Shown here: positions 1,374 through 1,439 of the stretch, piece by piece
How positions within the stretch are numbered: position 1 is the first letter of the stretch
How the letters are laid out: every line of letters begins with the position of its first letter
Virus record (IMG/VR): IMGVR_UViG_2541047437_000023
Length of the DNA: 5,118 nucleotides
Direction: 5' to 3' (one strand)
Source: a virus
Taxonomy: Duplodnaviria; Heunggongvirae; Uroviricota; Caudoviricetes
Position numbers and translations under genes: made by a program
The notes under the pieces: generated by a model
Database searches by the model: none
What the model saw: only the letters and a program-made list of their open reading frames with translations
What the model was told of the DNA's origin: nothing

Positions 1374-1439
1374 CCGCCACTAGCTCATCAGGAAAGAACG
1401 TCACCCTGTGCGAGATTCGGAGTCCCCGGTGGCGGTCCA
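1374..1439 (+). pseudogene. Decayed tRNA-like remnant (probable argN/tRNA-Arg(CCU) relic with internal deletion)
   Basis: Perfect 7-bp acceptor-like pairing CCGCCAC (1374-1380) / GTGGCGG (1429-1435), then T and CCA (1437-1439). TAGCTCA D-stem signature and an ATTCGGAGTCC T-loop-like motif are present, but the element is only 66 nt and no canonical anticodon or T stem can be formed. A CCT triplet sits at 1405-1407 where the anticodon would be. It occupies the middle slot of the ileZ-argN-argO arrangement. Confidence 0.3.

Follow-up and report, generated by a model that had tools for sequence, protein, structure and literature searches.

In this work we have asked what occupies the gap between two intact tRNA genes of an E. 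coli prophage: is it a tRNA that has escaped annotation, the remains of one, or a tRNA-like RNA with a role of its own? The window, by which we mean the whole stretch of 5,118 nucleotides that was analysed, belongs to the late region of a lambdoid prophage of E. coli O157:H7, and its tRNA region (1290-1535) is 100% identical to such a prophage in NZ_AP018488.1. The tRNA cluster has the order ileZ, middle gene, argO, and it is the middle slot, where RefSeq annotates nothing, that holds the 66-nt element which we call the relic. An earlier reading made from the sequence alone (below, the sequence-only reading) had taken it for a decayed middle tRNA of the phage cluster, and homology together with its position in the slot bears this out: the relic is a previously unannotated tRNA pseudogene within the known ileZ-argN-argO cluster, a case of ordinary gene decay. 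Very probably it is the non-functional descendant of a Lys(UUU)-type allele of this lambdoid-prophage slot. The surroundings of the relic are as follows.

198-1256: DNA methyltransferase gene, 5' of the tRNA cluster
1259-1287, plus strand: promoter-like TTGCGG-17 nt-TATTAT, a putative promoter by its alignment with the 933W feature 'pT; putative tRNA promoter'
1297-1372, plus strand: tRNA-Ile(CAU), intact, ileZ type (ARAGORN; Rfam tRNA model, 70.9 bits; RefSeq tRNA-Ile)
1374-1439, plus strand: tRNA pseudogene, the relic of the middle (argN) slot (no tRNA call; alignment to the Lys allele L013; unannotated in RefSeq)
1453-1529, plus strand: tRNA-Arg(UCU), intact, argO type (ARAGORN; Rfam tRNA model, 71.4 bits; RefSeq tRNA-Arg)
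1544-1570, plus strand: weak terminator-like GCCC...GGGC-TTTTT, tentatively assigned by alignment with the terminator annotated past argO in 933W
1639-1847, plus strand: sRNA STnc100, a full-length family match (175 bits) just 3' of the tRNA cluster
1849-1908, minus strand: AgvB-like anti-sRNA (56.6 bits against a gathering score of 56)
About 2053-3990: SASA/NanS-p esterase gene (RefSeq annotation)

The sequence-only reading had described the neighbours of the relic as intact, and the ARAGORN calls and Rfam scores of both genes agree with this. ARAGORN printed the gene at 1297-1372 as Met cat; the 933W record gives the codon of ileZ as 'AUA', and the ileZ-type tRNA-Ile(CAU) of the window reads AUA after lysidine modification. 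For argO the same record lists 'AGA; AGG?'. The window copy of ileZ has a C at D-loop position 1313 (CAGCGG), as against T in 65 of 74 unique clusters, and argO carries the discriminator A73 at 1525 (ACGCACCA), as against G73 in most copies; both genes still score high. The relic is probably co-transcribed with these neighbours, since the pT-like promoter is kept upstream; a simple promoter scan of the window did not flag the site at 1259-1287, nor did a scan flag the terminator-like sequence at 1544-1570. Farther downstream, the open reading frame at 1996-3990 is the mechanical frame of the esterase gene, started at the first TTG; small open reading frames follow it, and a holin gene lies just beyond the 3' end of the window. 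The locus has no stx gene, whereas in Stx phages the same tRNA cluster sits just upstream of stx. The minus strand of the window held only two short mechanical open reading frames (1388-1537 and 1459-1809) and a chance Rfam match (E = 7). The AgvB-like sequence at 1849-1908 also has a sub-threshold similarity to AsxR (46.8 bits). Just downstream of the window, the lysozyme gene of the same prophage is split by an IS1203 insertion (L004 10029-11875); the prophage is therefore probably lysis-defective, which fits a general decay of the element.

How much of a tRNA is left in the middle slot? The gap between the two intact genes runs from 1373 to 1452 (80 nt), and a single base, A1373, separates the CCA end of ileZ from the relic, which is 11 nt shorter than its intact 77-nt homologues. 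The sequence-only reading had seen a terminal stem, a D-arm signature, a T-loop-like motif and an encoded CCA in this 80-nt gap, and all of these are present at the places that it gave.

1374-1380, plus strand: 5' strand of the acceptor stem, CCGCCAC, pairing perfectly (7 bp) with 1429-1435 and the same as in the Lys-type allele
1383-1399, plus strand: D arm GCTC-ATCAGGAAA-GAAC, with strands at 1383-1386 and 1396-1399 (alignment)
1401-1410, plus strand: what is left of anticodon arm and variable loop, TCACCCTGTG (alignments)
1411-1428, plus strand: damaged T arm CGAGA-TTCGGAGT-CCCCG (alignment; ARAGORN cloverleaf of the intact Lys allele)
1429-1439, plus strand: 3' strand of the acceptor stem GTGGCGG (1429-1435), discriminator T (1436) and CCA (1437-1439)

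The relic thus has a 7-bp acceptor stem, a discriminator and a 3' CCA, as a tRNA should. This pattern is not a chance product, since only 156 of 200,000 mononucleotide shuffles of the gap gave a perfect 7-bp stem with strands at least 30 nt apart followed by NCCA. The D stem has three of its four pairs, G24 having changed to A at 1398 to leave a C11.A24 mismatch, and the GG of the D loop is present. Between the D and T arms there are only 10 nt (1401-1410), and the anticodon stem-loop, a 5-bp stem with a 7-nt loop, is absent. The T arm has three of five stem pairs and an 8-nt loop where seven are usual; its lesions are G53 to A at 1415, so that position 53 is A, and an extra loop G at 1419/1420, while the A51.C63 mismatch of the T stem is already found in the intact Lys allele. 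ARAGORN made no call in 1374-1439, either in the window or with the isolated 66-mer, and the Rfam tRNA model (RF00005; gathering threshold 29 bits) gave no match there even at E<=10; an identical relic copy (L003) likewise had no Rfam tRNA match. Intact alleles of the middle slot score 37-55 bits against this model and the neighbours in the window about 71. A canonical or unusual tRNA is ruled out by these searches, and so the sequence-only reading, which had proposed tRNA finders as a check, was right to expect no canonical tRNA here.

Could the relic be an armless tRNA-like RNA that still works, perhaps as a decoy for tRNA-binding enzymes or nucleases, as a primer or as a regulator? Its acceptor stem and CCA survive, it does not vary between hundreds of places, and it sits in a tRNA operon beside the known prophage sRNA genes STnc100 and the AgvB-like one. 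We nevertheless find such a role scarcely credible: the relic has no Rfam match, no covariation and no structure signal above that of shuffled sequences, and its lesions resemble ordinary damage to a cloverleaf. Moreover, other prophages have several unrelated dead alleles in this slot, a pattern that speaks for function lost and not gained. The fold energy of the relic is ordinary (-20.5 kcal/mol, z = -0.89 against shuffles), and we rejected its stand-alone fold as evidence of structure; minimum free energy folding is in any case uninformative here, because it does not return a cloverleaf even for the intact alleles.

From which gene does the relic derive? In a pairwise alignment with the intact Lys(UUU) allele (L013), 62 positions of the relic are identical, with 3 mismatches and 13 gap columns, whereas only 54-55 of 65 positions are identical to the Arg(UCG) alleles and 10-11 are mismatched. 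In both the relic and the Lys allele a 1-nt spacer follows ileZ and C7 pairs with G66; T27 and the variable/T-stem segment GTGCGAG are further diagnostic bases of the relic. Aligned with the Stx2 phages PA21 and Stx2k, the relic matches their middle tRNA gene minus 12 nt, and in some prophages the gene in this slot is annotated as tRNA-Lys by RefSeq and called Lys(UUU) by ARAGORN. Direct descent from argN(UCG) was rejected on these mismatches, 10-11 against 3 for the Lys-type allele. On the evidence of the alignments, the ancestor of the relic would be a tRNA-Lys(UUU)-type allele of the slot, itself a diverged homologue of argN. The place between an ileZ-type and an argO-type gene and the homology of three of its regions (acceptor, D and T) with those of intact members make the relic a member of the slot family all the same. 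Relative to the Lys allele its lesions are G24 to A, the loss of 12 nt, G53 to A and the extra G of the T loop. The 12 nt were lost at about 1406/1407, and with them went the anticodon (34-36), the two positions after it (37-38) and the stem strand on the 3' side (39-43), leaving about 34-44 absent. The placement of the loss is ambiguous and can be read either as one 12-nt deletion with an A to C change or as deletions of 1 nt and 11 nt. A full-length Lys-type allele (L148) has G24A as its sole relic change and may, to judge by its sequence, be an intermediate or an independent recurrence of G24A. Intermediates with the T-arm lesions and without the deletion were not found among the complete genomes (410 against 411 places).

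These alignments bear directly on the identity that the sequence-only reading had proposed, namely an argN relic, once an AGG-reading tRNA-Arg(CCU), which a single deletion of about 10 nt within the gene had inactivated. An internal deletion did occur and did remove the anticodon arm, and the alignment with argN proposed there does reveal similarity, with the 12-nt loss mapped to the anticodon loop and 3' stem strand. In its position and in the sequence of its acceptor, D and T regions the relic is indeed a homologue of argN, and the string CCT stands at the junction (1405-1407). This CCT, however, is C32-C33 of the Lys loop joined to T. Intact argN has the anticodon UCG (ARAGORN), the 933W record annotating it with 'codons recognized: CGH; CGG?', and no CCU allele occurs among 68 unique middle alleles. 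The nearer parent is the Lys(UUU) allele, and the deletion is not the only lesion, at least four having accumulated with G24A, G53A and the 1-nt T-loop insertion. We therefore regard an Arg(CCU) origin as most improbable.

The relic is not peculiar to the window. A search of 5426 complete E. coli genomes found its deletion junction in 392 of them, at 411 places that are all at least 99% identical and of which none is annotated, so that about 7% of the genomes carry the relic as one haplotype; the hosts include O157:H7, O111 and others. The exact 5' half of the relic was found in 396 genomes and the 3' half with the T-arm lesions at 410 places, and this agreement with the 411 places of the junction indicates that the lesions are linked in one haplotype. 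Two central probes of 39-41 nt gave exact matches only, at 410-411 genome places with differing flanks. Among phage records, 15 carry the relic and all are Stx2c-converting. The 36 relic copies in hand show a sole type of variant, G66 to A (L023, L234), which breaks the C7-G66 pair. Among the representatives of different species, only those of E. coli and Shigella flexneri had the 5' half of the Lys/relic allele, in both as part of a full-length gene, and plasmids gave only weak matches (73-77% identity). At least four relic-bearing genomes (NZ_CP028698.1, NZ_CP008805.1, NZ_CP034799.1 and NZ_CP077481.1) hold an annotated intact argN elsewhere. In the literature on ileZ/argN/argO and on the tRNAs of Stx2c phages, a search that lay outside the key Stx-phage papers (933W), a description of the relic was not found.

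Does such uniformity speak for a function? Nine different pairings of an upstream with a downstream flank surround the same relic, identity is 99-100% in the cassette but only about 82% in the flanking methylase DNA, and the spacer haplotypes beside the relic match those beside Arg-type alleles. All this fits recombination in the near-invariant flanking tRNA genes, and conservation therefore cannot be read as constraint; we dropped it as a test of function, recombination explaining the identity of the cassette equally well. The near-invariance of the relic could also reflect selection on an RNA instead of youth and recombination.

The middle slot as a whole behaves very differently from its neighbours. 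ARAGORN found ileZ in all of 74 unique ileZ-X-argO clusters and argO in 71, whereas a middle tRNA was called in 51 and went undetected in 23; the same clusters hold 9 distinct sequences of ileZ, 24 of argO and 64 of the middle gene. Intact alleles have the anticodons UCG, UUU and, once, UCU. The last is an argN allele (L034) in which one base change has made TCG into TCT, and its cluster therefore has two tRNA-Arg(UCU) genes. Death of the middle gene has taken several forms. A deletion of 1 nt affects the D stem of the dead Lys-type copies L006, L135 and L136, O55:H7 being included, and another such copy (L138) has several substitutions; one Arg-type class (L014) falls below the Rfam threshold at 23.7 bits, and a common dead class (L008, L010, L011) has a run of G in the place of the T loop. 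O55:H7 is regarded as close to the ancestor of O157:H7, and its dead allele, which has a different lesion, indicates that the same gene was inactivated independently. In E. coli O55:H7 RM12579 this dead Lys-type allele (L135 2985-3074) lies in a Q-tRNA-TerB-esterase context. The length of the G-run varies in L008, L010 and L011 (GGGGG, GGGGGGGG and GGGGGGGGGGGG), which looks like slippage in unconstrained DNA. We also noticed a third allele class of 80-81 nt, in which a 5-6-bp stem with an 11-nt loop, ACGATAACAGG, takes the place of the normal anticodon arm. It was found in a Stx2e prophage, where it is annotated tRNA-OTHER (L007 285-365), in L008 and L012 and at about 30 IMG/VR loci, and is the commonest single allele in the IMG/VR sample; most copies have a G-rich run for the T loop, and ARAGORN called none.

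It may be asked, in line with the alternative that the sequence-only reading offered, whether a relic that can no longer decode has been retained for its use in processing, an idea that is compatible with its origin as a pseudogene. RNase P is what separates some polycistronic tRNAs of E. coli. A cut by this enzyme between 1373 and 1374 would free the 3' end of tRNA-Ile, and would help its release because a single base separates the relic from ileZ; this 1-nt spacer after the ileZ CCA is found in Lys-type alleles too. The acceptor stem, discriminator and CCA are all kept, in a predicted fold of the ileZ-relic-argO transcript the relic would form a domain of its own closed by the acceptor stem, and the relic is near-invariant across prophage contexts. 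Against this stands the damage to the T arm (3 of 5 pairs, an 8-nt loop), since this arm, stacked upon the acceptor stem, is among the features that RNase P recognises. The natural variants L023 and L234 break C7-G66, the dead class of L014, L111 and L071 has lost two terminal acceptor pairs, no covariation was seen and the fold z-score is -0.89. All seven acceptor pairs are kept by 11 of the 16 unique undetectable middle alleles, much like 38 of 52 detectable ones, a comparison without statistical power because the 16 dead alleles represent only about three independent lineages. The idea that the acceptor stem is better preserved in dead than in live alleles was dropped on these counts. Taken together, we hold a processing role of the relic to be rather improbable.

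We thus return to a non-functional pseudogene of the Lys(UUU)-type allele. The 12 nt that were lost held the anticodon, the 3' half of the loop around it and the stem strand on that same side; together with the D-stem mismatch, the T-stem mismatch and the extra T-loop base, this loss leaves a relic that cannot decode. The perfect acceptor stem and CCA, which are free of all lesions, would simply be inherited sequence not yet struck. By our own arithmetic, the chance that three point changes in about 65 nt miss the acceptor stem and CCA is (1-14/65)^3, or about 0.48. The E. coli host already has plentiful tRNA-Lys(UUU). With this supply, and with intact middle-slot tRNAs in other prophages of the same genomes, the gene was presumably dispensable, and the dead allele would have passed as a cassette from prophage to prophage through recombination within the near-invariant tRNA genes at its sides. 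That the loss was neutral, and the sequence in which the lesions arose, are parts of this account that we infer. Relaxed selection is its simplest explanation, because of the repeated loss, the redundancy and the plentiful host tRNA-Lys(UUU).

More questions are raised by the intact Lys(UUU) allele itself. It occupies the slot that corresponds to 1374-1439 of the window (L013 379-455, L005 279-355, L137 385-461), is full length at 77 nt and scores 44.4 bits against the Rfam tRNA model. Its anticodon arm occurs in 796 genomes, the complete genomes having about 846 Lys-type places, and of the copies listed only about a third bear the annotation tRNA-Lys. In comparison with argN, the anticodon stem of the Lys allele differs by two fully compensated pairs (C27-G43 to U-A and G30-C40 to A-U), which indicates that it evolved under selection for a working stem. 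Clearly a homologue of argN, the Lys allele is a real, selected derivative of that family, and the slot has thereby switched its amino-acid identity. What follows the Lys-type gene in many prophages is not argO but tRNA-Thr(UGU) and tRNA-Gly (L013 458-611, L137 464-617).

Could the Lys allele serve some other end than codon supply? It has C33 in place of the near-universal U33, next to the PrrC cut site, and G39-U40-U41 where the host tRNA-Lys has U39-C40/A41, the slash marking the cut site of PARIS AriB. Substitution of U39 abolishes AriB cleavage (PMC12409363), and phage tRNAs have been proposed to evade anticodon nucleases through such changes (PMC10264068). Perhaps, then, the Lys(UUU) allele is a counter-defence tRNA that escapes host anticodon nucleases and not a codon-supply gene, a speculation in which we place little confidence. 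If it were true, the middle slot would be a fast-turnover cassette (Arg-UCG, Lys-UUU and the 81-nt 'other' form), and the relic of O157 and the Stx2c phages, though still dead, would mark the loss of one counter-defence. Separately, the PARIS nuclease AriB has Lys(UUU) and Thr(UGU) as its two principal targets, but the Thr copy that follows the Lys-type gene keeps the host-like site UAAUC/A.

What follows from a dead gene in this place? The relic by itself matters little. Its recognition corrects the annotation, in that such O157:H7 prophages and Stx2c phages have two working tRNAs and not three, and the same 66 nt in at least nine flank combinations provide a clean haplotype marker of lambdoid-prophage recombination. 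The pattern across the slot is more interesting: the slot changes its amino-acid identity and dies repeatedly while its neighbours are almost invariant. If the Lys allele is truly a nuclease-resistant tRNA, the slot records a host-phage arms race in temperate phages.

Finally, the relic can be set beside known systems. Like argN of 933W (AF125520), it lies in the slot between ileZ and argO with a pT-like promoter upstream; the two also agree in an acceptor stem with C1-G72, in the D arm, in the framework of the T arm, in the discriminator U and in the encoded CCA. However, argN is intact, 77 nt long and reads with UCG, whereas the relic has 66 nt and no anticodon arm, differs at 10-11 aligned positions and does not have the 7-9-nt spacer that argN has after ileZ. 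The inferred parent, the Lys(UUU) allele (NZ_CP069677.1 2025446-2025522, RefSeq tRNA-Lys), is closer, with the same spacer, C7-G66 and 62 of 65 bases; this allele usually precedes tRNA-Thr and tRNA-Gly, whereas the relic precedes argO, does not have positions about 34-44 and bears three extra lesions. Acceptor/T-arm minihelices are substrates of RNase P and of the CCA-adding enzyme, and the relic resembles them in its 7-bp acceptor stem and single-stranded NCCA end; it differs in that the T arm which should stack on this stem is imperfect. The relic also resembles tRNA pseudogenes in general, which are likewise homologous to an intact gene, disabled in conserved stems and loops and left uncalled by annotation pipelines. 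What sets it apart from them is that it lies inside an otherwise intact, probably co-transcribed operon and that it has reached, as one haplotype, about 7% of genomes.
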